A stretch of 22,929 nucleotides of DNA. Origin: Candidatus Micrarchaeota archaeon. GTDB lineage: Archaea; Micrarchaeota; Micrarchaeia; Norongarragalinales; SBBD01. The notes beneath the pieces are model-generated. The model searched no databases. It was not told the DNA's origin and saw nothing but the letters and a program-made list of their open reading frames with translations. Shown here one piece after another: positions 175 through 17,943 of this stretch. Location: positions 1 to 22,929 of the forward strand of contig JBDRLB010000075.1 in the NCBI GenBank assembly GCA_043813365.1, given 5' to 3'. A program made the translations under genes and the position numbers. Each line of letters begins with the position of its first letter. Within the stretch, counting starts at the first letter, position 1.

Positions 175-903
175 TCATTTCACATGAAAGCCGTGCCTCT
201 TTCCGCCTATTTGCAGGAAGCGCTTCACAATTGCGATTTTTTCGGGGGGTATGAAGTAAAACGGGATTTTCCCCGACTGCTTCCTGATTGCCTTGAACCT
301 GACGAATTTGCCCCCATTGATCGCGGCAGGCATGAGCAACCCCCTTGAAACAAGCGGCTTGAGAATTCCGGGCAAAATCTGCGGGCCAAGAAGCCGGATT
401 TGCTCGTCCTGTATTTCCATATAATTGAACCGCGATGCCCTAGGCGGAATGGCCCCTCGGCGTTCGTGGAAAATATCAACGCTAAATGCGTCCCTTATTG
501 CCCTTATGGGAAAAGTAAGCGCCCTTTTGAGGTGTCCTGAAGCCGGCGGTTTGGGAATTTCCTCTTGATTAGCTTGGGGGAAACGGCGCTCCAAGCTGCT
601 TATAGCCCGGCTTTCCGAGGGGAGGATATCGGAATACGTGTTCTTGGTCGGGCCTCCAAGGGAGCGCAAGTGGTTGAAAGTTCGGAGGAAAATGTCGCCA
701 ACAGCGGCGGGCTGCTGGATTTGCTGAGATTCGTAAATGTAATGCAATGAAACGATGCTTGAGGGAGGGATTTTTCCATCATTGGCGCTTTTTTCCAGTG
801 AGGAAAGCTCATCCATGGCGCGGGTATGCCTGAGCTTGCGGTTTACGGACTGGCCCAACGGAGAGATCCGCGTATTTTCTTGCGTTTCGGGTTCAGATGG
901 CAA
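175..903 (-). CDS. Hypothetical basic protein (orphan)
   Basis: 242-aa ORF with TTG start, co-oriented with its neighbours; no recognisable motif. Confidence 0.6.
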   Translation of the reverse strand: MPSEPETQENTRISPLGQSVNRKLRHTRAMDELSSLEKSANDGKIPPSSIVSLHYIYESQQIQQPAAVGDIFLRTFNHLRSLGGPTKNTYSDILPSESRAISSLERRFPQANQEEIPKPPASGHLKRALTFPIRAIRDAFSVDIFHERRGAIPPRASRFNYMEIQDEQIRLLGPQILPGILKPLVSRGLLMPAAINGGKFVRFKAIRKQSGKIPFYFIPPEKIAIVKRFLQIGGKRHGFHVK

Positions 904-972
904 CTGGGGTTCGCCTTTTTTCCTATATTGGAAGGCAGGCTTTATAATACTGGCTCAAGCGAAGGGGTTGCA

Positions 973-1293
973 TCAGATTTTTTTCCGCATTTCAAGGCTC
1001 TGGAGGTAGGTTTTGAGGCGCAGTATGCCATTTGCCTTTTCCAAGGACTCGGTGGCCATGCTGGAATTTGATTGAAGACCGTCGGGCGTGCCATTCTCAA
1101 CGGATTTAAGCGCATGGAGATGCAATCTCCTTGCATCGCGGTGATGGGTATTCAGAGTATGAAAAACATCCCCCAAGTTCTTTGCATCTGCAACTGTACG
1201 GCCATGCTCCCCGAATAAATCGCTGAGCTGCCGGTAGAGGTTGGAGTCCATCTCTAACCTAAGATTCTTGGAAAATTTCGTTTCAAGTTGCAT
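973..1293 (-). CDS. Hypothetical helical protein, 106 aa (MQLETKFSKNL...)
   Basis: 3' part of track ORF 973..1500. Start moved to ATG 1293 because the upstream part overlaps the 1311..1523 membrane gene. Confidence 0.6.
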   Translation of the reverse strand: MQLETKFSKNLRLEMDSNLYRQLSDLFGEHGRTVADAKNLGDVFHTLNTHHRDARRLHLHALKSVENGTPDGLQSNSSMATESLEKANGILRLKTYLQSLEMRKKI

Positions 1294-1310
1294 GGGAATT
1301 CCCAGCGGTA

Positions 1311-1523
1311 TTAGATGCGCTTCAGCATCATGGAGATGCCGAAGAATATGAGCAGGAGGGGCCAGAACGGGAAGGAGATTCCCTTTATGTAGCCAAGCTG
1401 CGACGCGAGCTCGAACATTCCCCAAGCTAGGAGGAACAGGCCGAACCAGAATCCGAAGCCGAACTTGTTTTCGCGGCACCACCACATCCCGCGCTTCCAT
1501 TGCATTTCATCGTTCTCTTTCAT
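1311..1523 (-). CDS. Small two-TM membrane protein (LiaF/DUF5668-like hairpin)
   Basis: FWFGLFLLAWG...FWPLLLIFFGISMM pattern; ATG 1523 preceded by AAGGGTGGT. Confidence 0.75.
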   Translation of the reverse strand: MKENDEMQWKRGMWWCRENKFGFGFWFGLFLLAWGMFELASQLGYIKGISFPFWPLLLIFFGISMMLKRI

Positions 1524-1556
1524 CTGAACCACCCTTGAATTCCATGAAGAAAAAAA

Positions 1557-2273
1557 TTATTTGCCAAGCCTGCTAATGTTGAACATCCAGATGCCCTTCT
1601 GCGCTTTAGGCAATCTCGTGTAATATAGCTGGATATCATGCAGGAGCATCGGCAGTTTTTCGCTTAAAGGGCCCTTGTGGCGCATGACCTGCTCTATGGT
1701 TTCGCCTGATATTTGGGATAATCCGCGCACATGGGCAAAGTGTTCACGAAGTAGTTTACGCATTTCCAGCAATTCGGATTCCTTGGGTTCGAAGGATAAG
1801 CCGGCGCCTATTCGACGGATGACCTCTCCGGCTGGCTGTTTTCCAACGGAGCGCAATAGTGCGGCAAGTTGCTGGGTGGAAGGGATTCCCTGCGTAACCA
1901 CCGTCAAAGGCAACTTTCCTTCACCAGTTGGCATTAAGATCGTATGCAATCGGGATGCGTCATCTTTGGCAGTTACATTTGTGATCAACTTCCTTCTTCC
2001 GAGAGCGCTCGTGATTCCCCCTACAAACCGCACATACATGCCATGGGTTGTGGGATCGCTATGTTTAAGGCGTTCAAATGTCACAGGAGGGCGCTTACTC
2101 AGCGTAGTTAAATGCTGATCCACTTGCCTCCTAAGGAAATTGATCTTCTCCTGCTCATGTGGAGGCAAATGGCTGAAATCAGCCCGTTTCAGCTGACGTT
2201 GCAGCTTCCCCAGTTCTTCCTCCACCTTTCCGCTTGAGTTCATTTTTTCCATAAATATCGGAAGAATACTCAT
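1557..2273 (-). CDS. Hypothetical protein (orphan)
   Basis: 238-aa ORF with protein-like composition, followed by a T-run on the coding strand. Start may be a few codons later. Confidence 0.65.
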   Translation of the reverse strand: MSILPIFMEKMNSSGKVEEELGKLQRQLKRADFSHLPPHEQEKINFLRRQVDQHLTTLSKRPPVTFERLKHSDPTTHGMYVRFVGGITSALGRRKLITNVTAKDDASRLHTILMPTGEGKLPLTVVTQGIPSTQQLAALLRSVGKQPAGEVIRRIGAGLSFEPKESELLEMRKLLREHFAHVRGLSQISGETIEQVMRHKGPLSEKLPMLLHDIQLYYTRLPKAQKGIWMFNISRLGK

Positions 2274-2306
2274 TGAGCAGGAATAAAATGGTTTGTATGG
2301 GGGGGT

Positions 2307-2747
2307 TCATTTCCTGCGGTATCTTTCCCTCGTCTGGGCGCTTATCCGGTTTACCTCGTTCACAATCCTCGCCTGTTCTGCATCCGACATCTTCAGGAAA
2401 TGCGAATGCACTTTATCCAATGCCGCAATGATTGGGTCGTGAAGCCCGGCTCGATCCTTCTTTCTTATGGTTCTCATCGAGCCGATTGAAAGGTCGCGCT
2501 GCCTTCTTGAGGCTGCTGCAATTAATTTGGCGATAGAGGCCCCTAGCTCCGGCGGCAAAGCATGCGCTTCCGACAAATAGCTCATCCTCCGGATAAGCGC
2601 GCCTGCCGGATGGCTTTCAAATGTTTTTCCAAGGAGTTCCTTGTTAGAAGGGGATTCGGCAGCAGTCAATGGCTTTGACTTCAATGTTCCCCGATCCAAT
2701 GCAAGGATCCTTTCAAGGCTCATTCTCGAATTGAACGGATTTCCCAT
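2307..2747 (-). CDS. Hypothetical basic helical protein (orphan)
   Basis: 146-aa ORF; GGTGGAAAA immediately before the ATG. Confidence 0.7.
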   Translation of the reverse strand: MGNPFNSRMSLERILALDRGTLKSKPLTAAESPSNKELLGKTFESHPAGALIRRMSYLSEAHALPPELGASIAKLIAAASRRQRDLSIGSMRTIRKKDRAGLHDPIIAALDKVHSHFLKMSDAEQARIVNEVNRISAQTRERYRRK

Positions 2748-2819
2748 TTTTCCACCATTGGAGTTTTAGAAAATAGTGTTATTTAAACGGATGGGAAGGG
2801 AAAATGCTGGCGTGATGGA

Positions 2820-3263
2820 TCAGCCGGTGGAAAGGCCGAAGAACTCCACGCCGAGGTAGAGGAACGCCGCGACTTTTATCATCCGGGCAACGAGCGCCCA
2901 CACGAAGAAGCGGTAGAAGTCCATCCTCAGTGCGCCAGCAACGATCAGCAGGGGGTCGCCAACGAAAGGCACCCAAGGGGCGAAAAGAAGAACCGAAAAA
3001 CCATATTTGTTTATTAGATTCTCCGCGCGCTTCTCCGATTTCGGGTCGCGTTTTGCAAGCCAATTGTGGATGCCCTTAAAGCCGATGTAATAATTGGAGA
3101 TTGAGCCGATCATCGCTCCGATGACGGCGATTATGAAAACATCAATGGGGCCCATGACTTTCAATGAAAGCAGGATCGCGGGCTCCGAGGGAAGGGGCAC
3201 GATGGAAGCGGATAGTATGGTTGCAATGAACAGGTTTATGTGCCAGATTGATATGCCTAACAC
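2820..3263 (-). CDS. YqaA/DedA-family (VTT domain) membrane protein
   Basis: SASIVPLPSE, GAMIGSISNYYIG, KYG...PWVPFVGDPL...AGALRM motifs; TATA-like TTTTATA about 50 nt upstream. Confidence 0.9.
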   Translation of the reverse strand: MLGISIWHINLFIATILSASIVPLPSEPAILLSLKVMGPIDVFIIAVIGAMIGSISNYYIGFKGIHNWLAKRDPKSEKRAENLINKYGFSVLLFAPWVPFVGDPLLIVAGALRMDFYRFFVWALVARMIKVAAFLYLGVEFFGLSTG

Positions 3264-3331
3264 GGTTTCAGGACCTCGAAAAGCTTCTCATTTAGTTATT
3301 TCGTTCCCGTATAAAAACGCATTGCAAGCGC

Positions 3332-4213
3332 TCATTTGAATCCTGCTGAAAGCACCTTTGCCATCCGGACGCCCAGCTCGAGATTATGCATTGAAAGGGG
3401 CTCTATGTTGAGGCCTAGGGGGATATCAAGGGAGTTTTGCTCGCAATGGCCAAGGATGTCGCTGAACAGGCTTTTCGCAATTCGAATGGATTTCTCACCC
3501 GTCTGGGAAGAATTTTCCAGAAGAATGCGCTCAATATCTGCGGGAATGGCCGCGCCAAGCCACTTGCAGAACTCAAGGTCGTAGGAGTCTGCAATGGGCG
3601 CAAAACTGAGGAAATAAGAGGAGGGTTCGATGTTCCCCTTCCTGCATTCCTCGCCGTATTCCGAAAGCAGGGATTTGACGGATTCCGCCTCGAAAAGCAC
3701 CTGGGTGGTGAAAAAGGAGCATTTCGCAATGGATTTGTCCAAGAGGCGCCTGCATTCGTTTTCCCGGGAAGGGATGGAGATGTTGCCTACCTCGATAGGG
3801 TATTTGGAAGAGGCAAGCTCATTGGCAGCGATTACAGATGGACCCGAATAGTCGATTGAGCTGTTTGAGCCGCCGACGAATACGATGGATCTTATCCCAT
3901 AAGCAGTGACGGTTTCATTTAGCCATTGCAGGAATTCGGGCTCGCCCTTGAAATGGGGAGTGATCTTATTGACAACGATTTCCTTTTGCATTTTTTTGGA
4001 AAGAAGGGAACCGAATTCGCGGTTGTCCATGTTCCGGAAAAGCGGCTTTCCCAAGCGATTTTCCTCGACGACTTCCGGGACGTTGATGTACTTTACAAAA
4101 TCAAGCGGCGCGATGGCCGAACTGATCCTTTCAATGTTTTTCTCAACCGTTGCGGCTGAGGCGCGGCGCGGCGGCGGAGTGACTTCAAACATCATGTCAA
4201 TTTCCTGCGCCAT
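3332..4213 (-). CDS. Methylenetetrahydrofolate reductase-fold protein, most like the flavin-independent mycobacterial type
   Basis: N-terminal FEVTPP, INVPE, IVFVGG, IPSRENECRRL, FFTTQVLF, FLSFAP and WLG motifs; last gene of the met operon, 5 nt after the metE catalytic subunit. Confidence 0.8.
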   Translation of the reverse strand: MAQEIDMMFEVTPPPRRASAATVEKNIERISSAIAPLDFVKYINVPEVVEENRLGKPLFRNMDNREFGSLLSKKMQKEIVVNKITPHFKGEPEFLQWLNETVTAYGIRSIVFVGGSNSSIDYSGPSVIAANELASSKYPIEVGNISIPSRENECRRLLDKSIAKCSFFTTQVLFEAESVKSLLSEYGEECRKGNIEPSSYFLSFAPIADSYDLEFCKWLGAAIPADIERILLENSSQTGEKSIRIAKSLFSDILGHCEQNSLDIPLGLNIEPLSMHNLELGVRMAKVLSAGFK

Positions 4214-4218
4214 GCACT

Positions 4219-5403
4219 TTACCTCTCGAATTCCTTTCTTGCAAGTTCCGCGCCCTTGACCATGTTAACCAGTTTTTCGTAAGCTACGGGCCATTGCCTC
4301 GTGCGGAGGCCGCAATCGGGGTTAACTTGGACGCGTGCGGGGTCGCCAACAAGCTTTGTTGCATAAAGCAGCCGGTCCCGGATCACTTCAGGCGACTCGA
4401 TCACATTCGAGTGGATGTCCACAACACCGACACCCACATTCACATCCATCTTGTACTCGTTGAAAAGCTCGATGATTTTGTACGCCTCGGGCGAAACCTG
4501 CTCTGGGCTGAAATGGGTTGGGGAAGCATGGTTCGTGAATTCTATCAGGTAGGAATCTGCCTTGCATTCTGCCAAATAAGGGAAGAGCGCTGGGTAGTTG
4601 CTGTAGCATAGGTGTATCGCCTTTTCCACCGAATCGGGAATGCCCTTGAAGGATTCGTTCATAGATCGCACGAATGCCTCGGACTCATATTCCTTGGTTG
4701 TCGCGGCTGGCTCGTCAAGCTGGATCACCGTCGCGCCTTTTTTTGCAAGGGATTTTATGATGGGATTATGCACCTTGGCAGCGAATTCTATGATCGCATC
4801 CTCGCGGCTGTGCTTCAATGCTTCGAAGGGGGATTCGCCCTTCCCTTCCCGGGTATTGCGGTGGTACTCAATATACGACCAGTCGGCCATTGTGTAGGGA
4901 CCCGAAAAGCATGGCTTTACTATGCGGTCCGAATGCTTTGCTACAAATTCGAATGAAGTGTCGAAGAACTCGATGCCCTCGGGCTTTACTGAAAGTTCCC
5001 CGTCAATGATGCCTTTCTTGAAATAGTTCGCATCGAAGGAATTCAGCGTGCCTGCAGTGCGGATGCCGTTTGTTCGGCGCGCGACGGTATCATACATTTC
5101 GGTACCGGGATTCTCGCCGTTGAAAATGCGGTCAAGCCCTGCAGTTTCGAGCATGCGGATTACGTAGATGGTGGCGATGTCGATGATGCGATTTTTTTCC
5201 TCGGGAGTCCGTTTCTTGCCGTCCTTCTGCAGGAGGCCCGTGCCTTCCTTGTTTGCAAGCTCTATCCTCTCATTTACTTGCAACTTTTCCCCCCATTCAT
5301 GGGCGGATGCTATCCACTCCTTGTTCACTGGAGCGTCAAGCTTCTGGCGCCAGATGGGCCTTTGGATGCTTCCGATCTCCTGCGTCATGAATATTTTTTT
5401 CAT
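4219..5403 (-). CDS. metE: Cobalamin-independent methionine synthase, Zn-binding catalytic subunit (split MetE C-half)
   Basis: TQEIGS, GPYT, IQLDEPA, HLCY (His/Cys), LIEF (Glu), GVVDIHS and VNPDCGLRTR (Cys); ATGA overlap with the upstream subunit. Confidence 0.92.
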   Translation of the reverse strand: MKKIFMTQEIGSIQRPIWRQKLDAPVNKEWIASAHEWGEKLQVNERIELANKEGTGLLQKDGKKRTPEEKNRIIDIATIYVIRMLETAGLDRIFNGENPGTEMYDTVARRTNGIRTAGTLNSFDANYFKKGIIDGELSVKPEGIEFFDTSFEFVAKHSDRIVKPCFSGPYTMADWSYIEYHRNTREGKGESPFEALKHSREDAIIEFAAKVHNPIIKSLAKKGATVIQLDEPAATTKEYESEAFVRSMNESFKGIPDSVEKAIHLCYSNYPALFPYLAECKADSYLIEFTNHASPTHFSPEQVSPEAYKIIELFNEYKMDVNVGVGVVDIHSNVIESPEVIRDRLLYATKLVGDPARVQVNPDCGLRTRQWPVAYEKLVNMVKGAELARKEFER

Positions 5404-6362
5404 TTCAGCTTTCCTATTAGGGATGATAGCGACCTGATCTTCTCCAATGCGAAATTGAATGGCACGTCGTAAAGCCGGTCGGTGGTGCCGGCGTAATAAT
5501 TGCCGGAAAATTCAGCCTTTTCGAGGAAGGGCTGCAGGCTCGACTTGATTTCCTCAGCGGTTTCAGTTTTCGCGCGCACGCCGTCAACAATGCCGAAAAG
5601 AAGGTCCTTCGTAGTTAATATTTTTTCAGAGGTATAAATGCAGTCAATGCCGATGAAATCAATTGGTGTGTTTTCGAGCATTGGTGCCACTTCTGAAGCG
5701 TCGCACAGCGGGAGATGCACTCCCAAGGCGAATCCCTCCTTCTTGAATTCGCCCAAAACTTCCTTGTACCATTCCTCCATGCGCAGCTTTTTTTTTGATT
5801 GGTCGTAGCCGATGGATGGCTCCAATAGGAGGATGCAGGAATAGCCGTGATTTTTTAACGAGGGGAGATTCTTTGCAACTGCTTTTGCGTAATCAAGTGC
5901 AAGCTGTTTTTCATCGTTGTAATAGGTGTCGACAACCATTCTTGAAAAGGAATACGGCCCCAATATCAAAAGCATCCCGTTCCCGCCCAATTTCGGGAGA
6001 GCCTGCACAAGTTCATTCCCAACGCAATCAATTTTCCCGGCAACAGTGGGCATCCTGTAGAATGAGTTCGTCCGGAACCACCTTGTAACGGGGCCGATTG
6101 CATCCTCGCCGGGGGAATCCCGTTTGGAGAAGCCGGCGAAGGAATGCGCCAAGGGCCTCAGGAGATCCAGCCAATCGGGCTGCCCGCCTGAAATGAATGC
6201 GAAATTTTCCTGCGCTTTTATGTATGCATCCGCGTCCTCTCCGCAATTTTTACGGAAATCCTCGAAGGGGCCGTTTCCGTCGCGGAATAGCCTATGCGCT
6301 GCTGCTGTTTTTTCCGAGCGTGTTGTTTGGCCGCATATCGCAGCCCCTAAATATTTTGGCAA
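5400..6362 (-). CDS. MetE N-terminal-half-like (folate-binding, non-catalytic) subunit of a split methionine synthase
   Basis: SGGQ..W.D..RP, TRWFRTNSFYRMP, GPYSF, LLEPS and GIVDG; lacks the HxC and PDCG Zn ligands. TTG start at 6362 after GGTGGGA removes the overlap with mat. Confidence 0.8.
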   Translation of the reverse strand: MPKYLGAAICGQTTRSEKTAAAHRLFRDGNGPFEDFRKNCGEDADAYIKAQENFAFISGGQPDWLDLLRPLAHSFAGFSKRDSPGEDAIGPVTRWFRTNSFYRMPTVAGKIDCVGNELVQALPKLGGNGMLLILGPYSFSRMVVDTYYNDEKQLALDYAKAVAKNLPSLKNHGYSCILLLEPSIGYDQSKKKLRMEEWYKEVLGEFKKEGFALGVHLPLCDASEVAPMLENTPIDFIGIDCIYTSEKILTTKDLLFGIVDGVRAKTETAEEIKSSLQPFLEKAEFSGNYYAGTTDRLYDVPFNFALEKIRSLSSLIGKLK

Positions 6363-6378
6363 TATTCCCACCCTAAGA

Positions 6379-7566
6379 TCAAAAGACAGTAACCTTCTTA
6401 TCAATTATCATTTTTGTCAGGTCCGATATATGCTCCAAGTGATGGTCTACAAGGTCGTGCACGTCCCTTTGGATTTTCCCAAAATCCTGCCCATTGCCGT
6501 CTGTCTTAAGGCGGACGTCCGCCATTTTGGGCTGGTCCACCGGCTGCCCGATCTGCGAGAGCATGTAAATTTCGCAATTCTTTACCTCGGGGTGCTTTTT
6601 CACTATCTCATTTGCGATGTAGAATGATGCGACATTGTAGATTTTCCCGATATGCGTGACGGGGTTCTTGCCTGCGGCCGCTTCCAATGACATGGGCCTG
6701 AAGGGCGTTATCAATCCGTTGACGCGGTTGCCCCTGCCGACGCTGCCGGGGTCGCCTGCCTCCGCGGACGAGCCTATTGCTGTAAGGTATACGGATTGGG
6801 TCGCGTAATTGTCGCCGGTATTCACGTGGATTTCAATCCCGCCATCGCCAACGGCCTTATGCGCCTCCTCCTTGATTTTCAGGATGGTTTCCTTGTACTG
6901 CTCGAGCCCGGATACATATTTGCTGACGATTGCGCATGCGACGGTGATTTTTTCCTTCGTCCCTTCGCGAAGGCCCATTACCTTTATGTCTTCCCCTATT
7001 GCAGGGATCCTTTTTTTCAGTTCGTCCGAATTGAGGTGCCTCTCTATTTTGAGGACTTTTTGCTCAATGGGAGAAAGCGGCGCATATCCGCAACCGAAAG
7101 ACGTGTCGTTGCTGCTCTTCTTCCCCTTCCGTCCGAAAATGTCAGCAAGGTCAACGGATCCGCGGACTATGCGGGAATCAAGCGTAACATCGTTTTCAAC
7201 GTCAACATACCGGAGAGCGGTTTTCATGTAATCCTTTGCGGCCTTAATTGCAACGTGGGGCACATTGATCTCGAAATCCCTTGTCTTGTAGGTGGCATTT
7301 CCGCTCAGCACGATGTGGATCGGCCGTATTATCCTGCCTTCCCCGAACTTCGCTTCGGATTCACCCGCATTGAGAAGCACCTTATCGGTGTTGTGGTGGA
7401 GTATCGAGCCGCATTCCTTTATGTATTCCCTGCAGAGAGCGATGCTTACCTCCTCCGCAATCCCGTCGCAGATGGAGTCCGGGTGGCCTAGCCCTTTGCG
7501 CTCCACAATCTCCACATTCCCTATGTCCTTCGCGGTATGCTCCACATTAATGTTCCGGCTTGCCAT
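6379..7566 (-). CDS. mat: S-adenosylmethionine synthetase, archaeal type
   Basis: ERKGLGHPDSICD, NDTSFGCG, GEDIKVMG and GRGNRVNGLITPFRPMSLEAAAGKNPVTHIGKIYN; ATG 7566 after AAAGGTGGGA. Confidence 0.97.
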   Translation of the reverse strand: MASRNINVEHTAKDIGNVEIVERKGLGHPDSICDGIAEEVSIALCREYIKECGSILHHNTDKVLLNAGESEAKFGEGRIIRPIHIVLSGNATYKTRDFEINVPHVAIKAAKDYMKTALRYVDVENDVTLDSRIVRGSVDLADIFGRKGKKSSNDTSFGCGYAPLSPIEQKVLKIERHLNSDELKKRIPAIGEDIKVMGLREGTKEKITVACAIVSKYVSGLEQYKETILKIKEEAHKAVGDGGIEIHVNTGDNYATQSVYLTAIGSSAEAGDPGSVGRGNRVNGLITPFRPMSLEAAAGKNPVTHIGKIYNVASFYIANEIVKKHPEVKNCEIYMLSQIGQPVDQPKMADVRLKTDGNGQDFGKIQRDVHDLVDHHLEHISDLTKMIIDKKVTVF

Positions 7567-7581
7567 AGTTCCCACCTTTAA

Positions 7582-7693: not shown

Positions 7694-8248
7694 ATGTTCC
7701 CGGAACTGTCGCAAATCGGAAGGCTTCGGAGGAGGCTTGGGCTCACGCAGGGGAAGCTGTCGGAAATTTCGGGCGTATCGCAATCCTCAATCGCAAAGCT
7801 GGAGATGGGAAAGCTGGATCCGTCATTCTCCAATGCGAAAAAATTATTCGAGGCACTCGATAATTTGCAAAGGAAGGAAGGCAAAACCGCGGAGGATATC
7901 ATGCACCGCCACACCTATTCTGTAAGGGGCAGCCAGAAGCTTGGGAGCGCGGTAGCGATGATGAGGCAAAACGGGATTTCGCAGCTCCCCGTGCTGGATT
8001 CGCACGGAAAAATAATAGGAAGCATTTCCGAAAAAGGCGTCCTTTCAAGAATCGACGAGGAGCCCGATTTTAATATTGGAAAATCAAGGGTTTCGGATGT
8101 GATGGAGGATGCATTCCCAACTGTGGGCGGGCACACTCCGCTGCAGACGATTTCGCACATCCTGCGGGATTCGCTGGCGGTGCTGGTGATGAAGGGCAAC
8201 CGGATTGAGGGGATAATCACAAAATCGGATTTGTTGGGGAATGCCTGA
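7694..8248 (+). CDS. XRE-HTH transcriptional regulator with a C-terminal CBS pair (COG3620-like)
   Basis: LRRRLGLTQGKLSEISGVSQSSIAKLEMGKLDPS HTH; ISQLPV...IGSISE and GIITKSD CBS motifs. Confidence 0.93.
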   Translation: MFPELSQIGRLRRRLGLTQGKLSEISGVSQSSIAKLEMGKLDPSFSNAKKLFEALDNLQRKEGKTAEDIMHRHTYSVRGSQKLGSAVAMMRQNGISQLPVLDSHGKIIGSISEKGVLSRIDEEPDFNIGKSRVSDVMEDAFPTVGGHTPLQTISHILRDSLAVLVMKGNRIEGIITKSDLLGNA

Positions 8249-8253
8249 TTTTC

Positions 8254-8778
8254 CTATTTTTTCGAGGCAACGATCTCATATGCAAGGTCCCATGCGAGGA
8301 ATGCGATGAAATGCCATGACGTTATCGCGCCGAAAAAGGCAGCCGCGAACATCCCCAATTTAAGCGTCATCCTCCGGAGGAAGAACCATTGGATAAGCCC
8401 GTCACGGATTTTTGGGACCCTTTCATGGCCGAATTCGTCCAGGAAACCGCAAACACCCAATGAAATTGGGAGGGCGATGATTGCAAGGAAATCATCATAG
8501 AGTATTCTGGAGAGCAAGCCGCCGCCGGCAATAAGGATGCCGATCAGCCACGGGAGCGCATCCACCTTTCCCCCGAAAATAACCCCGAGGAGTATTGCTG
8601 TGAATATTATTGCAGAACCCTCATCAACTGCGATGAGATATCCCATAAGGAAGGAAGCTACAACTGCAAGGAAAATCGGCTCGAGCTCGCTGCGCTTCTC
8701 ATTTTCGTCCTCCAAACGGTCTATAAGCGCGACCATCCCCCCTATAAGGCCGTATGCGGCAACAAGAATCAGGCTCAT
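8254..8778 (-). CDS. Uncharacterised multi-pass membrane protein
   Basis: About five or six hydrophobic segments with charged motifs (DRLED, GKVD, DEFGHE, WDLAYE). Start likely ATG 8778; the track uses 8826. Confidence 0.75.
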   Translation of the reverse strand: MSLILVAAYGLIGGMVALIDRLEDENEKRSELEPIFLAVVASFLMGYLIAVDEGSAIIFTAILLGVIFGGKVDALPWLIGILIAGGGLLSRILYDDFLAIIALPISLGVCGFLDEFGHERVPKIRDGLIQWFFLRRMTLKLGMFAAAFFGAITSWHFIAFLAWDLAYEIVASKK

Positions 8779-8846
8779 AGTGAGAGAAAGAATTCGCGCT
8801 TTATTAGGGTTTTGATGGCGACGCAATTAATCCTTTTTTTAAAAAT

Positions 8847-9707
8847 TCAATTCCTGAATTCGAGCAGCACTTCCTCGCGCAGCTGGCGTGCGAGGTCCGG
8901 ATTGCGGGAGACCAGCACGTTTACTGGTTCTGCTTTCTCATACATCAGCGAATAGAGGTTCGATAACGCCCTTCCGTTTTGCGACTCCCTCGCGTTGAAG
9001 ATCCTTGAGAGCGCATTCTTCGTGTTTTTTGGGAGGAATAGTTGAACCACGTAATCGCGGTAGCCGAGCATGTCGCAGTTTTTGGAGCATTCCGCCTTCA
9101 GTTTCGCCGTTGTGCCCGCACTTTTCCAGAGGGATATGAGCGTTTTATCAAGGGAGGAGTTGCCTTTGCATGCGATGAAATGCTTTCCGGCGGAGAGGAA
9201 TTTCCGCAGCTTGTCAAACTGGTATTTTGAGAGGTTGGTGATCGGCCAGGGATGATAGGAGATTATGAAAGCGCCCTCTTCCGCCCCGTTTTCCAGCTGG
9301 TTTGCTGCGAGCTCCTCAAGCAGCCAGTAAAAATATTCGATCATGGAATCGAAAACGAGCTGGACAGATGAATTCGGCCCGATTTCCGCAAGATGGATGC
9401 TTCTTTGGCCCTTGAAAGCGGAATCCAGCTCCTCCCCGAATTTTTTTATGGATTCGATCCAATCGGATGATATGGAGTATTTTGAATGCGTTTTTGTGAG
9501 GACGGCATCGCCCGCTAATTGGAGTATTGCCTTATGAACTCCCTGGTAGGTTATGCTTTCCCCCGCTTGTGCGTGGATGCGGTTGTAGATCTCCTTTGCT
9601 GACAATGGCCATTCCCGGCCCAAAACGGACAAGATCTGCGATTTCGCATCCTTCCTCAGATTGCTGGCATTCACATACGGTATGCGTTTTTGTTGCAGCA
9701 GCACCAT
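8847..9707 (-). CDS. Winged-helix transcriptional regulator with an unknown C-terminal domain
   Basis: ILSVLGREWPLSAKEIY...ITYQGVHKAILQL...VLTK...YSIS wHTH pattern; TTTATAAA about 35 nt upstream. Confidence 0.8.
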   Translation of the reverse strand: MVLLQQKRIPYVNASNLRKDAKSQILSVLGREWPLSAKEIYNRIHAQAGESITYQGVHKAILQLAGDAVLTKTHSKYSISSDWIESIKKFGEELDSAFKGQRSIHLAEIGPNSSVQLVFDSMIEYFYWLLEELAANQLENGAEEGAFIISYHPWPITNLSKYQFDKLRKFLSAGKHFIACKGNSSLDKTLISLWKSAGTTAKLKAECSKNCDMLGYRDYVVQLFLPKNTKNALSRIFNARESQNGRALSNLYSLMYEKAEPVNVLVSRNPDLARQLREEVLLEFRN

Positions 9708-9969: not shown

Positions 9970-10103
9970 CACGCAAATTGACACCCAATCGCAGGCCATT
10001 TACGGCAAAAAGTTTAATTTATTAACCCCGCTAGCCTAATTTTTCGGCTTTTGTGCGTGCCGATTGCCGCAAACTTGCCTAACTGGCAAAAAGGTTGATT
10101 TGT

Positions 10104-13100
10104 ATGCAAGCGTATGACCAGCATGATATAGAAAAGCAGATGCTCGAATTCTGGGAAAAACAATCTATTCCCCAGAATATTGGAAAGCAGCGGCCTGGTG
10201 CAAAGCCGTTCTTTTTGCTGGACGGCCCGCCGTATGCGAATGCGCAGCCCCATGTGGGGCACGTGAAAACAACTGCCTGCAAGGACATCTGGAGCAAATA
10301 CAAGCAGATGCAGGGTTTTCGCTCCTATTTGCAAGCAGGTTTCGACTGCCACGGGCTACCAACTGAAGTTATGGTGGAGAAGGAGCTGGGCATACAGGAC
10401 AAGCGCGACATTGAGCTGATCGGAATAGACAAATTCGACGCGAAATGCCTTGAGAAAGTGCTCAACACCGAAAAGGGCTGGATGGAATATTACCGCAGGC
10501 TGGGCGCTTGGAGATTCTACTCGGAGCCGTATTTCACATACAAGGACTATTACATCGAAAGCGGTTGGTGGACCGTGAAGCAGCTGCATGAGAAAGGCCT
10601 GCTTACTGAAGGCGAGAAGCCGGTTTATTGGTGCCCGCATTGCGAAACAACCCTTTCCGGATATGAGGTCAGTGATTCCTACAAGGATATGCTGGACCCT
10701 TCAATATTCGTGAAATTCAAGGTGAAGGGGAGGGAGGACGAATACTTGCTTGTTTGGACGACGACTCCTTGGACGCTTGCCGCAAATGTTGCAGTCGTAG
10801 TGCATCCTGAGGAGGATTATGTGCGGGCAAAAGTGGGGAATGAAACCTACATCATTGCCGAGAAGAGGCTTGCCCCGATCCTGGATGAGAAACTCAAAGT
10901 GAAATACGAGGTGCTGGAAAAATTCAAGGGAGGGGAGCTGGATGGCATTGAATATGAACCGCTCCTTGACATTCCTTCGCAAAAGGAGCTCGGGCCAACC
11001 GGAAGGAAGGTGCACCTGAGCATCGTCATCATGACTTCGAAGAAATACAAGAAGCATAAATTGAGCCATAAAAAGGAGGAGCCTAAGGAGGGCGGAGTTA
11101 GTACCCCAATTCAGCCGGAAAAAATAATCGCCTCGCTTACGGGGAAGCAGAAAACTGATGTTGACAAGGTCACCGGCACGGAGGAAAGGGAGGAGTATGA
11201 GGAGTTTGTGAGCATGGCAGAAGGAACCGGATTGGTTCATTGCGCGCCGGGGCATGGGCAGACGGATTTCTTTGTCGGGAAATATTACGGCTTGCCCGCA
11301 GTATCGCCTGTGGATGAGGCAGGCAAATTCACGGAAAAAGCGGGCGAGTTCAGAGGCAAATTTGTCAAGGGTGCGGACGACGAGATCATTGCACGCCTTA
11401 AGGAAACAGGAAAATTGCTGTTTTCTGAAAAAGCGACGCATCGTGCAGCGCTCTGCTGGAGATGCAAGACTCCGCTGATTTTCAGGCTGAGCAAGCAATG
11501 GTACCTGAAAGTGGAGCCGATAAAGGAAAAGCTCATATCCGAGAACCAGAAGCATGTAAAATGGCTTCCCGAATATGGGAAAACGAAGTTCCACAATTGG
11601 CTGGTTGACAGGGAGGATTGGGCGATTTCGCAGCAGAGGTATTGGGGAATACCGCTCCCCATATGGATTTGCGGGAAATGCGGGAAATTCGACGTTATTG
11701 GGGGCCGGGAAGAGTTGAAGCAAAAGAGCCGTGCCCCGCTCAAGGATGAGGAGCTCCAGGACCTGCACAGGCACACGGTGGATAAGATAGAGCTTAAATG
11801 CGGGAATTGCTCCGGGACGATGGCGAGGGTGAAGGACATCCTGAACGTTTGGTTCGATTCCGGAATAGCGCCATGGGCCTCGTTCGGCTACCCGTATAAA
11901 AACAAGGAGCTTTTCGAGGGCATGTTCCCAGTTGATTTGATTAACGAATCGCAGGATCAGATACGCGGATGGTTCGATTCCCTCATGTTCACCTCCGTCG
12001 CAGCATTCGGGAAGGCGCCGTACAAAACAGTATCGATGATGGGCTGGGTGCTGGATGAGAAGGGCGAGAAGATGAGCAAATCGCTCGGGAATGTGGTGCC
12101 CGCAATGGACGGCATCCAGAAACTATCTGCCGATGTAATACGAATGTATTACTGCTATGAAATTGCCCCGTGGGATGTGCAGAAATTTTCCTATAAAACG
12201 GCGGAGGAGGTGCGGCGCGCATTCGCAATACTTTTCAACACATACTCCTTCTATAAGATGTATTCGGGCGATTCGCAGATAGGCGCTTATGAGGAAGCCG
12301 CCTTGAAAACGGAAGATAGATGGATATTGGGAAGGCTGAATATACTGAAAATGCGCATGAAGGAGAAAATGGATGCGTTTGAATTCCATTCAGCGGGAAG
12401 GCAGATGGTTTCGTTCCTTGTCAATGATTTTTCCAGGACGTACATCAAGCTAATAAGGGACCGGGTTTCATCTGCAGAAAATCCGCAGGATAAGGCAACG
12501 TGCCTTGCATTGATCCGGCACATCATCATGGAATATTCCAAAATGCTCGCACCCATATCGCCGTTCATTTCAGAATACCTTTACCAGCACTTGAAGGTGG
12601 CGTCGGATCCGGCAAGCGTGCATTATTGCGATTACCCCAAAATACAAGAGGGAAGCGTGGACCTTGAGCTTGATGCGCAATTTGGGACGATGATGAAAAT
12701 TTCAGAGGCGGTGAATTCGCTGAGGCAGGAGCTGAAGCAGAAGCTCCGTTGGCCAATTGAGGAACTGAGCGTCAGTGGCGACGGCCAAGTGGAAGCAGCT
12801 GTAAAATCAATCGGGGAAGTGATCGAGCTCATGACCAACTCGGAAAAAATAAATTTCGGCGATAATGTTTCGTACGCCTCGAAGGAATTTGAGAACGGGA
12901 AGGTTTTCATTCCGCGTGAACTATCGGAAGGTGCAATCCTGCGGGCCGCATTCCGGGAGCTTACCCGTGCCGTGCAGGCGGAGAGGAAGAAGAACGGGCT
13001 CGTTGTGAATGACCGGATCGGCCTTTCCGTTTATTCAAATGACCCCAAATTGCAGGAGTACCTCGGGAACATGAAGCAGGCGCTCGCTTCGGAAGTGGGG

Positions 13101-13220
13101 GCGTCCGGAGTTGAGATCAGCATGAAGGAAACTGACCCCCAAAGCGGGATATCCGCCTCGCTGGACCTGAAGGAGTTGAAGGATGGGATGAAAATAACCT
13201 TCAAATTTTCCAAAGCTTGA
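10104..13220 (+). CDS. ileS: Isoleucine--tRNA ligase (archaeal/eukaryal type)
   Basis: GPPYAN, HVGH, GFDCHGLP, WTTTPWT, GTGLVHCAPGHG, DQIRGWF and KMSKS; ATG 10104 after AAGGTTGA. Confidence 0.97.
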   Translation: MQAYDQHDIEKQMLEFWEKQSIPQNIGKQRPGAKPFFLLDGPPYANAQPHVGHVKTTACKDIWSKYKQMQGFRSYLQAGFDCHGLPTEVMVEKELGIQDKRDIELIGIDKFDAKCLEKVLNTEKGWMEYYRRLGAWRFYSEPYFTYKDYYIESGWWTVKQLHEKGLLTEGEKPVYWCPHCETTLSGYEVSDSYKDMLDPSIFVKFKVKGREDEYLLVWTTTPWTLAANVAVVVHPEEDYVRAKVGNETYIIAEKRLAPILDEKLKVKYEVLEKFKGGELDGIEYEPLLDIPSQKELGPTGRKVHLSIVIMTSKKYKKHKLSHKKEEPKEGGVSTPIQPEKIIASLTGKQKTDVDKVTGTEEREEYEEFVSMAEGTGLVHCAPGHGQTDFFVGKYYGLPAVSPVDEAGKFTEKAGEFRGKFVKGADDEIIARLKETGKLLFSEKATHRAALCWRCKTPLIFRLSKQWYLKVEPIKEKLISENQKHVKWLPEYGKTKFHNWLVDREDWAISQQRYWGIPLPIWICGKCGKFDVIGGREELKQKSRAPLKDEELQDLHRHTVDKIELKCGNCSGTMARVKDILNVWFDSGIAPWASFGYPYKNKELFEGMFPVDLINESQDQIRGWFDSLMFTSVAAFGKAPYKTVSMMGWVLDEKGEKMSKSLGNVVPAMDGIQKLSADVIRMYYCYEIAPWDVQKFSYKTAEEVRRAFAILFNTYSFYKMYSGDSQIGAYEEAALKTEDRWILGRLNILKMRMKEKMDAFEFHSAGRQMVSFLVNDFSRTYIKLIRDRVSSAENPQDKATCLALIRHIIMEYSKMLAPISPFISEYLYQHLKVASDPASVHYCDYPKIQEGSVDLELDAQFGTMMKISEAVNSLRQELKQKLRWPIEELSVSGDGQVEAAVKSIGEVIELMTNSEKINFGDNVSYASKEFENGKVFIPRELSEGAILRAAFRELTRAVQAERKKNGLVVNDRIGLSVYSNDPKLQEYLGNMKQALASEVGASGVEISMKETDPQSGISASLDLKELKDGMKITFKFSKA

Positions 13221-14262: not shown

Positions 14263-15525
14263 TCACCCTATCCTTTTTCTTCCCAGCAATTTTTGGAGCT
14301 TTGCGGGCACATCGATTGTTCCGTCCTCCCTCTGGCAATTCTCCAAAATCGCGACCAGCGTCCTTCCAATGGCAAGCCCGGAGGAATTGAGCGTATGGCA
14401 GAATTTGAACTGGTTGTCCTTGCCGCGGTACTTGATGTTTGCGCGCCTTGCCTGGAAATCAGTGCAGTTGCTGCAGCTTGCGACCTCGCGGTATTTCCCT
14501 TGGGCTGGAAGCCACACTTCCAAATCGTAAGTTTTTGCGGAGCCGAATCCCAGGTCGCCGGCGCACAATTCGATGACGCGGTAGGGAAGCTCCAATGCCT
14601 GAAGGACGGACTCGGCATCCTTCAGTAGCCTGAGATGCTGCTTTTCTGAATCATCCTGATGGCAAACCACTACCATTTCCACCTTGTCGAATTGGTGCTG
14701 CCTGATGATGCCACGCGTGTCCTTTCCATGCGAACCCGCCTCCCTACGGAAGCACGGTGTGAATGCGCAATATGATTTAGGGAGATCCTTGTATTCGAGA
14801 ATTTCATCCGCATGGAGGTTGACAAGCGGCACCTCCGAAGTAGGTATGGCGTAAAGGCCGTCCCTTTCAATTTTGTATAAGTCATCCCCGAATTTCGGCA
14901 GCTGGCCGGTGCCTATAAGCATTTCAGCCCGTACCAGCAGGGGCGGATTTATTTCCTCATGCCCGTTTTCCTTGGCATTCTGGAGCATGAAATTCATGAG
15001 CGCCCGCGATAATTCGGCGCCTGCACCTTTCAAAACAGTAAAACGCTCGCCTGAAAGCTTTGCCCCGGCAGCAAAGTCAAGGATCCCCAGCTTTTCCCCC
15101 AGCTCGTAGTGATCTTTAGGCGTAAATTTGAATTTGCGGGGAGTGTCGACCTTCCTGATTTCCTTGTTTCCCGCTTCATCCTTTCCCAGAGGGACGGAAT
15201 CCAGCGGGAGGTTTGGGATGAGAAGTTCCAATTGGCGCCGTTCCGCCTCTACCGACCTCAATTTTTCCTCAATTCCCTTGATTTTTTCCGGGATCCGCTT
15301 CGCTTCCTCCAGTTTCTGCTTCGCATCCTTTTTCCCTTTTATCAGCTCGTTGATTTCCCTTGAAATGGAATTCCGCTGCTTCCTCAGCTCCTCCATCTGT
15401 TGCAGTTCCCTGCGCCATTCTGCATCCTTTGCAATCAGTTCCTCCAGCGGGGATGGCATTCCACGCTTCTTCAATGCATTCCTCACAAATTCAGGATTTT
15501 CACGGATAAGCTTGATGTCCAGCAT
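14263..15525 (-). CDS. serS: Serine--tRNA ligase (standard type, bacterial-like signatures)
   Basis: MLDIKLIREN start, coiled-coil arm, TGQLPKF, IPTSEVPL, FRREAG, HQFDKVE, SCSNCTDFQARR and HTLNSSGLAIGR. Confidence 0.97.
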   Translation of the reverse strand: MLDIKLIRENPEFVRNALKKRGMPSPLEELIAKDAEWRRELQQMEELRKQRNSISREINELIKGKKDAKQKLEEAKRIPEKIKGIEEKLRSVEAERRQLELLIPNLPLDSVPLGKDEAGNKEIRKVDTPRKFKFTPKDHYELGEKLGILDFAAGAKLSGERFTVLKGAGAELSRALMNFMLQNAKENGHEEINPPLLVRAEMLIGTGQLPKFGDDLYKIERDGLYAIPTSEVPLVNLHADEILEYKDLPKSYCAFTPCFRREAGSHGKDTRGIIRQHQFDKVEMVVVCHQDDSEKQHLRLLKDAESVLQALELPYRVIELCAGDLGFGSAKTYDLEVWLPAQGKYREVASCSNCTDFQARRANIKYRGKDNQFKFCHTLNSSGLAIGRTLVAILENCQREDGTIDVPAKLQKLLGRKRIG

Positions 15526-15620
15526 AGGATTTCCCATTCCTATTGTCTGGAAGCATTAAAAAAGGATAACTTTAAGGCAGTTAAAAAATCGGGAATTCAA
15601 TCAAAACGTATTTAAGCTGG

Positions 15621-16125: not shown

Positions 16126-16486
16126 TTAATGCATTACTTTCATCCGAGCTAATTTGAAAACCACCTCGAGCTGATGGGGATTGGCAGAAGTTTTTAAATT
16201 TACTTCCCGATCAATAAAACATGTGCTCTTGGATCCAGCACCCAAAAAACGGTCCGAAGCCATTTTTGCCTTCAATCTAGCCATGAAATCATTGATGGGC
16301 TTTCCCGCATCCTTCTTGATCAAATCTTGGAACTCGTCGGGACCTAATTTTGGCAATTTGTTGCCAACATAAGTGATAGTAATGCTGGCAATTTTTCCCC
16401 CCTGGCATCCAATCTTTTGGTTCCTCCAAAAAATAACCATCCACCCTAAATTTTTTCTCATCCAATGCACATACTAACTTTTCCAT
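16126..16486 (-). pseudogene. Hypothetical ~119-aa protein interrupted by one extra base in a G6A5 run (pseudogene, phase variant or assembly error)
   Basis: ATG overlaps the proS stop (TGATG) and reads MEKLVCALDEKKFRVDGYFLEEPKDWMPGG, then continues in the +1 frame as KIASITITYVG...KVMH. The span is 361 nt (3n+1). Confidence 0.65.
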
Positions 16487-17943
16487 CAGTACTGCCTCCC
16501 GAAATATGCGCGGATCCCGGGCCTTCCGCATGCAATGCAGTTGCCTTTTTCGGGCTTTTCGCCTAGCAGCGTTCCCCTCACTTTGCCTCCTTTTGTTGCT
16601 TCCTTGAGCGCATCCCCGCATTTTTTCCCTTCCATACCGATACTGCAGATGAAGATTTTTGCAATGCCCTTGGAGTCAAGGATGGCGAGGGCGTCTTCTT
16701 TCGTATCCGCGATTTTTATGGCAGCAAATAATTCAGTTTTCGATTTTTCCCTAAGCGAGGAGAGCATAATTGCCTCATTTTTCCTTACCCCTTCAATTAG
16801 TTCCGCTTCGGAAATTTTCATCTTTTCCTTGTTGTCCCTCCGGGCAAGCGTAACGTTTCCCTCGTTGACCTCCCTTTCCCCCAATTCAATGCGGAAGGGA
16901 ACGCCCCTCATTTCCCACCAGTTGAACTTGAAGCCGGGGGTTTTGTCAGAGAAATCGATCTCTGAACGGATGCCTGAAGAAATGAGCTTCCCCTTCAATT
17001 CTATCGCTTTCTGCCTCACTTTTTCCGCACCTTCCCCTTTCAGGATGGGGACGATGATTACCTGGATGGGAGCGATTGCAAAAGGCATTACGAGCCCTTT
17101 CTGGTCGCCATGCACGGAAACAACAGCACCCATCATCCTCCAGATGCCGGGCCCGAAACAGGTCGAGAAGGGATATTTCTTGTTCCCTCCCTGGTCGGTA
17201 TATTGCACTTCAAATGCTTTGGTAAAATGCTGCCCCAAAAGGTGCGTCGACCCGAATTGGAAGAGTTTCCCATCCGGCATCAGGCAGTCGTAAGCAAATG
17301 TTTTCTCAGCACCGGCGAACTTGTCCCATTGCGGCCTCTCGAAAGCTAGGAACTCTATTCCCAGATTTTCTGAAGCGATCTTTTTCATCGTTTCATAATC
17401 CATGCTCGTCTGTGCTTCCGCCTCCGCACTGGTCGCAAATAAATCATGGGTCTCGATCCAGAGGAACTCCGATCCCCTCAGGAAGGGATTCGTTTCCTTC
17501 TCTGCCCGGAAAACAGAGCAGCTTTGGTAGAGCTTCAACGGCAAGTCGTTCTGGGAGGATACCCAAAGTGAGTACATCTGGTAGAATGCGGTTTCGCTTG
17601 TGGGCCGGAGGGCGAGCTTGCGTTCAAGTTTTTCAGTTCCTTTCTCGGTGACCCAGAAAACCTCCGGCGCAAACCCCTCAACATGCTCCTTTTCCTTATG
17701 GAAATTGTCCTCGGGAATGAGCGTCGGGAATATTACAGGCTGGTGGCCGTCTTCCTCAAGCAGGCCTTCGAAAATCCGGTAAATTTGGCGGAATGCGATG
17801 GTGCTCCATGGCCTGTGCACCAGGAAGCCCTTGATGTTGTACCGGATGTCTGCTAGTTCGGACGCATATATGATGGTGTTGTACCATTCCGAAAAGTTGC
17901 GCTGCTTGTCAATATTGAATTCCCGCTGTTTCATCTCCACCAT
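16486..17943 (-). CDS. proS: Proline--tRNA ligase (archaeal/eukaryal type)
   Basis: NFSEWY, LRPTSET, FLRGSEFLWIETH, KFAGA, H.LGQHF, HGDQKGL, anticodon-binding domain and C-terminal GRQY. Confidence 0.97.
   Translation of the reverse strand: MVEMKQREFNIDKQRNFSEWYNTIIYASELADIRYNIKGFLVHRPWSTIAFRQIYRIFEGLLEEDGHQPVIFPTLIPEDNFHKEKEHVEGFAPEVFWVTEKGTEKLERKLALRPTSETAFYQMYSLWVSSQNDLPLKLYQSCSVFRAEKETNPFLRGSEFLWIETHDLFATSAEAEAQTSMDYETMKKIASENLGIEFLAFERPQWDKFAGAEKTFAYDCLMPDGKLFQFGSTHLLGQHFTKAFEVQYTDQGGNKKYPFSTCFGPGIWRMMGAVVSVHGDQKGLVMPFAIAPIQVIIVPILKGEGAEKVRQKAIELKGKLISSGIRSEIDFSDKTPGFKFNWWEMRGVPFRIELGEREVNEGNVTLARRDNKEKMKISEAELIEGVRKNEAIMLSSLREKSKTELFAAIKIADTKEDALAILDSKGIAKIFICSIGMEGKKCGDALKEATKGGKVRGTLLGEKPEKGNCIACGRPGIRAYFGRQY

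Follow-up and report, generated by a model that had tools for sequence, protein, structure and literature searches.

A candidate Mfr-type methylenetetrahydrofolate reductase encoded in a methionine operon of a micrarchaeon

Flavin-free methylenetetrahydrofolate reductases (MTHFRs) are, to our knowledge, so far known only from the Mycobacteriales. Here we analyse an open reading frame (ORF) that may extend them to the archaea. It is the last gene of a methionine operon in a 22,929-nucleotide stretch of a Candidatus Micrarchaeota genome (GenBank assembly GCA_043813365.1, contig JBDRLB010000075.1; hereafter the window), and an earlier note on this DNA, made from the letters alone, had read it as a possible flavin-independent MTHFR of the mycobacterial type (Mfr). 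According to Gehl et al. (2024; PMC11094777), candidates for Mfr from beyond the Mycobacteriales have not been studied, and missing intermediate sequences block a decision on whether Mfr and MetF, the canonical enzyme, evolved divergently or convergently. In the work of Price et al. (2021; PMC7857596), a jackhmmer search from MSMEG_6596 returned only Actinobacteria in its first round and reached PF02219 (MetF) proteins by the third. The literature we searched, subscription journals lying outside it, held no report of archaeal Mfr-like enzymes; Tables S2 and S3 of PMC11094777 might list such sequences.

We propose that the ORF probably encodes an Mfr-type MTHFR, flavin-free and dependent on NADH or NADPH (reduced nicotinamide adenine dinucleotide or its phosphate; together NAD(P)H), that feeds a split cobalamin-independent methionine synthase (MetE). 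That it would be the MTHFR of the operon's pathway is very likely, judging from sequence and gene content; that it would carry out the MTHFR reaction without a flavin is argued by analogy with Mfr, and here we lean towards the claim with more reserve. The function itself is probably ordinary. The MTHFR label is not new either, one source already naming a minority of the relatives so; what is new is the claim about the cofactor and the place of the family in evolution.

The Mfr-like family and its active site

A script found all eight motifs quoted in the earlier note, in the order quoted, in the 293-residue protein: FEVTPP (residues 9-14), INVPEVVEE (43-51), IVFVG (110-114), ISIPSRENECRRLLDK (145-160), TTQVLF (169-174), FLSF (201-204), WL (218-219, with a second WL at 97-98) and PLGLNIE (265-271). 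The same motif search bore out the absence of H[LI]TC and LRGD, the signatures of MetF that depends on flavin adenine dinucleotide (FAD). The earlier note likened the motifs to those of Rv2172c; corresponding blocks (LELVP, IPGMIEED, FVG, IPTRD..E..R...K, MTQLLY, LLSF and WL) stand in the alignments of two solved relatives, MSMEG_6649 and Mycolicibacterium hassiacum Mfr (hMfr). Translation may start at Met7 or Met8 instead of at the ATG of the ORF, since the sequences of several relatives open with M[FL]EV.

Pfam family PF19345 ('Mycobacterial methylenetetrahydrofolate reductase') matched the protein at E=1e-4 (21.9 bits) over residues 39-190 only. PF02219, the MetF family (cut-off 24 bits), gave no match to it at E<=1, and the NCBIfam models yielded nothing useful. 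Searched singly against PDB sequences, the protein found 3ijd_A over its full length (4e-20) and 7wmw_A (6.8e-5), the other six matches being chance-like (E>0.2). Together with the profile matches given below, these E values put the resemblance to Mfr above chance. At E<=1e-3 the search for homologues gave 173 proteins, the best non-self one 56% identical. Among the best 120 of these 173, most are unnamed or 'hypothetical', and the organisms named are Micrarchaeota, Woesearchaeota, Nanoarchaeota, Levybacteria and Terriglobia; the name '5,10-methylenetetrahydrofolate reductase' is the one given to the minority mentioned above.

A family profile (A1) made from an alignment of 46 sequences of this search had five matches at E<=10 among all PDB sequences: 3ijd (3.1e-37), MSMEG_6649 (7wmw; 5.3e-13), hMfr (8bgr; 2.7e-11), the hMfr E9Q variant (8qpj; 1.8e-10) and a glutaredoxin (0.89). 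No canonical MetF chain was among them. When the 46 members were scanned singly, 36 matched PF19345 at E<=0.01 (best 3.6e-9) and 26 matched PF02219 (best 1.6e-6), which places the family between Mfr and MetF and nearer to Mfr. An exhaustive profile search returned 851 clusters at E<=1e-3, 585 at E<=1e-10 and 266 at E<=1e-30, and the 851 clusters range across Micrarchaeota, Iainarchaeota, Woesearchaeota, Thermoplasmatota and some bacteria. Some longer members look like fusions, their extra parts carrying no informative domain; a LysR regulator fused to one of them is probably a gene-calling artefact. The window protein belongs to a separate, mostly archaeal family, Mfr being only about 17% identical to it.

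Gehl et al. (2024; PMC11094777) name four functional positions, A to D, held by Glu9, Leu221, Gln177 and Glu55 in hMfr and by Glu28, Phe223, Gln183 and Asp120 in Escherichia coli MetF. In the A1 profile alignment the four hMfr residues pair with Glu10, Leu219, Gln171 and Glu50 of the window protein, and profile comparisons also align Glu10 with Glu28 of E. coli MetF. Conservation was counted in 240 relatives of 265-365 amino acids (aa), drawn from 264 proteins. Position 10 is Glu in 215 of them (gap in 9, Thr in 8, Gly in 6, Ser and Asn in 1 each), position 219 is Leu in 230 and position 171 is Gln in all 240; Asp or Glu occupies position 50 in 185, and the neighbouring Glu51 is Glu in 219. 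Arg150, Glu153 and Lys160 are invariant and Arg156 is Arg in 226. Mfr fills position B with Leu and takes an acidic residue from an extended loop after strand 2, where MetF uses Phe223 and Asp120.

Two minority subgroups depart from this pattern. Six of the 240 relatives (P0206, P0208, P0216, P0254, P0260 and P0264) form, with 3IJD as the family's only solved structure, a subgroup with Gly for the catalytic Glu and Y-D for P-E in the loop, and eight others have Thr at the catalytic position; in both, reductase chemistry may have been lost or changed. The window protein, with Glu10 and P-E present, stands outside the 3IJD-like subgroup and within the Glu-bearing majority.

With respect to E. 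coli MetF and 18 archaeal and bacterial MetFs, which have T-Y-G at this place, the loop PEVVEEN(R) is inserted; its counterpart in the Mfr alignment is PGMIEED, part of the loop that covers the active site of Mfr. In the profile alignment with E. coli MetF, Asn82 stands at the His88 position and the invariant Gly114 at the Arg118 position, and the residues aligned with HLTC and LRGD are N-K-I-T and V-G-G-S. PMC10586308 lists M50, I51, V88, V115, V117, P118, R119, I150, R153, R159, K163 and D221 as NADH-pocket residues of MSMEG_6649. Of the 11 that could be mapped (D221 could not), five are identical in the window protein (V113, I147, R150, R156 and K160) and three are conservative (V48, V49 and I84), in a region that in MetF partly binds FAD. 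The discriminating feature is the inserted loop in common with Mfr, two residues of which line the NADH pocket in MSMEG_6649.

AlphaFold2 modelled the protein from the A1 alignment as a (beta/alpha)8 barrel with mean pLDDT 96.1 and pTM 0.92. Foldseek ranked 3ijd first (TM-score 0.79), followed by MSMEG_6649 (0.76-0.77), hMfr (0.74) and MetF/MTHFR entries (0.63-0.71), so that Mfr comes out slightly nearer than MetF; VIA-align nearly ties the two kinds, with Z of 31.4 for 3ijd, 28.2 for MSMEG_6649 with NADH, 26.0 for hMfr, 26.1 for Thermus and E. coli MetF and 16.4 for Mer.

For comparison with MetF we assembled 19 canonical sequences, E. coli MetF and 18 archaeal or bacterial ones cut from the searched genomes; searching with the E. 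coli sequence brought up nothing but near-identical E. coli copies. A tree of 100 rows (the window protein, 80 relatives and the 19 MetFs; IQ-TREE 'quick' mode, LG+C20, no rows dropped) was built, which bears on the separation from canonical MetF only and not on the branching order relative to Mfr. The family does not cluster with canonical MetF: no branch of the tree is longer than the one that parts its 81 rows from the 19 MetFs (SH-aLRT 100), and the program's long-branch warning applies to it. The window sequence groups with two Micrarchaeota sequences (support 96) inside an 11-row clade, 10 rows of which are MetE-linked. As far as sequence and structure reach, the reading as an Mfr-like reductase is supported.

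The methionine operon and the pathway

The operon consists of four tightly packed minus-strand genes encoding S-adenosylmethionine (SAM) synthetase (MAT), a MetE N-terminal-like subunit, the MetE catalytic subunit and, last, the reductase candidate (Table 1). The N-terminal-like gene overlaps the catalytic gene by 4 nt, and the latter stops 5 nt upstream of where the reductase gene begins. The catalytic gene also matched the NCBIfam methionine synthase models NF003317 (E=2e-62) and NF002272 (E=1e-49), both under the curated cut-offs. The adjoining Meth_synt_1-like and Meth_synt_2 genes, each encoding fewer than 400 aa, agree with the split MetE defined by Price et al. (2021; PMC7857596), which they predict to use methyl-tetrahydrofolate (methyl-THF) or another methyl pterin.

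The own assembly (1.34 Mb, 78 contigs, 88.6% complete) contains the reductase candidate as its sole PF19345 match, and PF02219 had no match at E<=1 anywhere in it. It encodes serine hydroxymethyltransferase (GlyA; 3e-165), FolD (7e-69), ThyX and S-adenosylhomocysteine (SAH) hydrolase; ThyA, Pterin_bind (FolP or MetH) and formate-THF ligase were not found in this 88.6% complete assembly. GlyA forms methylene-THF from serine, and FolD is a THF-specific enzyme, absent from the Methanocaldococcus jannaschii and Sulfolobus control genomes; its presence here argues for tetrahydrofolate as the carrier. The activated-methyl cycle would be complete save for an MTHFR, which the reductase candidate would supply. 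The genome also has a tandem-fused ThyX-like frame, two Thy1 (ThyX) matches lying in one 553-aa open frame (G000:C13:25333-26613; L090, L091). Among the controls, Sulfolobus acidocaldarius gave a weak PF19345 signal, below the cut-off, in a genome with MetE and no PF02219 match; a distant Mfr-like protein may occur in Crenarchaeota too.

The place in a met operon, which the earlier note took as independent support, is real and recurs in relatives. One genome per species was scanned with a closer 12-sequence alignment, and the best 80 of 227 stretches were taken as 12-kb loci. Their sources are Micrarchaeota, Iainarchaeota, Woesearchaeota and many Thermoplasmata, besides a single Thaumarchaeota record and two from bacteria. 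Tblastn located the MetE catalytic gene in 22 of the 80 and the N-terminal-like gene in 21. In DPANN loci the split metE lies directly upstream on the same strand, with catalytic copies 61-79% identical to that of the window in Micrarchaeota and Iainarchaeota; it is downstream or on the opposite strand in L061, L073 and L075. Two loci, L002 and L003, repeat the whole gene arrangement of the window. A second, non-homologous methionine synthase is linked to the same reductase family in two further loci, one from a Woesearchaeota record and one from a record labelled Methanosarcinales, where a complete bacterial-type MetH with five Pfam domains stands directly upstream. In L007 this MetH (2621-5992) overlaps the start of the Mfr-like gene (5989-6843), and in L009 the two lie at 630-4046 and 4787-5641. 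No methionine synthase gene was found nearby in the remaining 56 loci, and the Thermoplasmata neighbours (PurL, amidohydrolases, DNA methylase, HFX_2341-like; 64 ORFs in 14 loci) gave no functional hint.

None of the 24 genomes whose gene is linked to metE (22) or metH (2) has a canonical MetF at E<=1e-8. Sub-threshold MetF matches cover profile positions ~154-252, and in L028, where the coordinates were checked, what matched was the family gene. Among 121 genomes sampled from the phylum, five contained the family, two a canonical MetF and seven MetE. The seven MetE genomes divide into four with the family, two with MetF and one that lacks either; in none do the family and MetF occur together. 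Since the genomes are related, these counts do no more than describe the sample. At one MetF-bearing locus of this sample (L085), a Cys-rich ORF (2455-3447, minus strand) lies upstream of metF (1414-2367, minus strand); it appears to resemble the MetV partner of acetogen/methanogen-type MetF.

One Thermoplasmata clade, with 23 rows in the tree (L010, L014, L015, L017, L018, L021-L025 and others), gives a different picture: 22 of its genomes carry both the family and a full-length canonical MetF (E ~1e-35 to 1e-41). Because the family gene is not linked to a methionine synthase there, the two reductases may differ in role.

The operon is flanked by a divergent gene for a protein with a helix-turn-helix (HTH) domain and a CBS pair, present at the same place and in the same orientation in L002, L003 and L008 (3 of 80 loci). 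Adenosyl compounds are common ligands of CBS pairs, and this protein may therefore be a SAM-sensing regulator of the MAT/metE/reductase operon. Farther along the window, three aminoacyl-tRNA synthetase genes lie within 8 kb: a class I Ile/Leu/Val-type enzyme, seryl-tRNA synthetase (SerRS) and prolyl-tRNA synthetase (ProRS). Pfam gave no match for the window ORFs 1557-2273, 2307-2747, 8254-8826, 8847-9707 and 20415-21650.

Table 1. Features of the window, with positions counted from its first nucleotide
Feature	Position	Strand	Evidence
Mfr-like methylenetetrahydrofolate reductase candidate, 293 aa	3332..4213	-	ATG-started ORF; PF19345, PDB sequence matches, AlphaFold2 model
Key residues of the reductase candidate: Glu10, Glu50/Glu51, Ile147, Arg150, Glu153, Arg156, Lys160, Gln171, Leu219			
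MetE catalytic subunit, split cobalamin-independent methionine synthase (C-terminal type), 394 aa	4219..5403	-	PF01717 E=2.4e-33, 116 bits
MetE N-terminal-like subunit, presumed pterin/folate-binding half, 334 aa	5400..6404	-	PF08267 E=1.2e-9, 38.6 bits (cut-off 27)
Archaeal-type S-adenosylmethionine synthetase (MAT), first operon gene	6379..7575	-	PF01941 E=5.8e-152; NF003366 461.9 bits (cut-off 435)
HTH (XRE-type) and CBS-pair protein, divergent	7694..8248	+	PF01381 E=1.2e-11; PF00571 E=1.2e-19
Aminoacyl-tRNA synthetase genes	10095-13220; 14263-15537; 16486-17943	+; -; -	

Predicted mechanism and alternative readings

By analogy with Mfr, a single-domain (beta/alpha)8 barrel would bind 5,10-methylene-THF and the reduced nicotinamide cofactor together. 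Methylene-THF would lie over the top of the barrel, held by Gln171, Glu50 and Leu219, and Glu10 would protonate N10, the imidazolidine ring opening to give a 5-iminium cation. NAD(P)H, with Ile147, Arg150, Arg156 and Lys160 to hold it and the V48-V49 loop as a cover, would then transfer its hydride directly, with no flavin between. The resulting 5-methyl-THF would pass to the split MetE encoded just upstream, which would methylate homocysteine; MAT would convert methionine to SAM, and GlyA and SAH hydrolase, encoded elsewhere in the genome, would close the activated-methyl cycle. In this scheme we infer the reaction itself, the lack of a flavin, the donor (NADH or NADPH), the use of NADH and a monomeric state.

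Several observations weigh against a flavin-free, Mfr-type enzyme. The PF19345 score of the window protein stays under the family cut-off of 27 bits, so that, although profile searches place it nearer to Mfr than to MetF, the assignment made in the earlier note does not extend to membership of the narrow mycobacterial family. The closest solved relative, 3IJD, is uncharacterised, and its subgroup has Gly in place of the catalytic Glu. Three of the 11 mapped NADH-pocket residues differ, G115, S116 and N117 standing for V117, P118 and R119 of MSMEG_6649. MetF could sit in the missing part of the assembly, which is 88.6% complete, and no FolP or other pterin-binding gene was found in it, so that folate would need to be imported; the lack suggests folate salvage. 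A canonical MetF at E<=1e-8 also occurs in 24 of the 80 family-bearing genomes, 21 among the first 50 and 3 among the remaining 30, with 22 of the 24 in the single Thermoplasmata clade described above, and the family is therefore no simple MetF substitute everywhere. Fold and basic residues, finally, speak for neither cofactor. The FAD-containing MetFs score like hMfr in VIA-align, only MSMEG_6649 being slightly higher, so the fold does not decide the cofactor: the model places the protein in the MTHFR superfamily, within which it does not separate flavin-free from flavin-dependent enzymes. The conserved stretch E153-K160 aligns, in the comparison with the 19 MetFs, with residues 165-172 of E. 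coli MetF, which PMC8765232 describes as the nucleotide-phosphate-binding region for FAD, and the basic residues would therefore suit either cofactor.

These last two points also favour the best-surviving alternative, that the protein is a divergent MetF: an MTHFR with a bound flavin (FAD or flavin mononucleotide, FMN) and a ping-pong mechanism, with the same function and pathway role and another cofactor. The family is homologous to the 19 canonical MetFs with 98.5% probability in a profile-profile comparison by hhalign (E=2.5e-15; comparisons with E. coli MetF gave 57% and 38%), and PF02219 touches more than half of the 46 members scanned. We nevertheless consider a divergent MetF unlikely, in view of the missing PF02219 match to the protein, the missing MetF chains among the profile matches, the replaced HLTC and LRGD signatures with Asn82 and Gly114 at the His88 and Arg118 positions, the Mfr-type loop in place of T-Y-G, two residues of which line the NADH pocket in MSMEG_6649, and the longest branch of the tree lying between the family and MetF.

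An Mfr-type enzyme is also preferred over a reductase of the same fold with other partners, such as F420H2 or a ferredoxin-linked partner for the hydride, or a pterin carrier other than folate, along lines proposed for some archaea. The weak PF19345 signal in S. acidocaldarius would fit other partners, and in one Thermoplasmata clade the family coexists with MetF, a hint that its role there is distinct. Such a reductase seems improbable to us here, however, as the own genome encodes FolD and ThyX, the gene of two relatives is in an operon with a MetH that bears a Pterin_bind domain, the Arg/Arg/Lys set that binds NADH in MSMEG_6649 is conserved, and the Mer-type F420 enzymes score far lower in structure comparison. 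A non-reductase protein that binds or handles folate like 3IJD, for example by delivering methyl-folate to MetE, is very improbable: 3IJD, whose function is not assigned, is indeed the best match by sequence (4e-20 singly, 3e-37 by profile) and structure, but the window protein keeps the Glu10 and P-E that the 3IJD subgroup has exchanged for Gly and Y-D, Glu10 is shared by 215 of 240 relatives, the invariant Arg150, Glu153, Lys160 and Gln171 suit a site for a cofactor and a pterin, and the pathway would otherwise be without any MTHFR.

Relation to Mfr, 3IJD, MetF and Mer

An Mfr-type assignment would bear on how MTHFRs evolved. Tentatively, and with rather more doubt than for the function, we suggest that the family may be an ancient, mainly archaeal lineage of flavin-free MTHFRs that fills the sequence gap between Mfr and MetF, the 'missing link' of Gehl et al., and that it may be the standard route to methyl-THF in many archaea. 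A family placed between Mfr and MetF, with a solved structure in 3IJD, offers testable proteins for the question of divergent or convergent origin. Genomes in which the gene is linked to metE or metH have no other MTHFR candidate. If the assignment is true, it would fill a gap in metabolic reconstructions of DPANN archaea and Thermoplasmata that have methionine synthase and lack MetF, and flavin-independent MTHFR would be no mycobacterial oddity.

Mfr itself (MSMEG_6649, PDB 7WMW-7WMZ; M. hassiacum, PDB 8BGR; PF19345) has the same barrel as the window protein (TM 0.74-0.77, Z 26-28). Both proteins run to about 290 residues and place the catalytic Glu among the first ten; the remaining three functional positions hold Gln, Leu and a loop Glu, and an extended P-x-x-x-E-E loop follows strand 2. 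They also have the I-P-x-R...E..R...K and T-Q blocks in common. Mfr supplies methyl-THF for methionine synthesis, and the same role is expected of the window protein. The two differ in overall sequence, as the low identity and the sub-threshold PF19345 score weighed above reflect, and after strand 4, where the window protein has V-G-G-S-N and Mfr V-G-V-P-R. The window family is archaeal (DPANN and Thermoplasmatota), with its gene within a MAT/split-metE operon, whereas Mfr is actinobacterial.

The closest solved relative is 3IJD (Cthe_2304 of Clostridium thermocellum), which aligns over its full length with 22% identity over 270 aligned residues. It is a structural-genomics entry, functionally uncharacterised, that according to its title was crystallised with two 5-methyl-THF; our literature search found no paper mentioning Cthe_2304. 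At the Glu10 position of the window protein it has Gly, and I-Y-D-L-Q where the window protein has N-V-P-E-V.

Canonical MetF/MTHFR (PF02219; E. coli, Thermus) belongs to the same superfamily and has a similar fold (Z ~26), the catalytic Glu and Gln, and an expectedly identical reaction. Compared with it, the window protein has no PF02219 match, HLTC, LRGD or N-terminal extension of ~20 residues, and gains the loop insertion of 7-8 residues after strand 2. Mer, the F420-dependent methylene-tetrahydromethanopterin reductase (PDB 1Z69), is likewise a TIM barrel, whose catalytic Glu is also N-terminal and whose reaction is analogous; it differs in being a weak structural match (Z 16.4, 8% identity) and a member of the luciferase superfamily.

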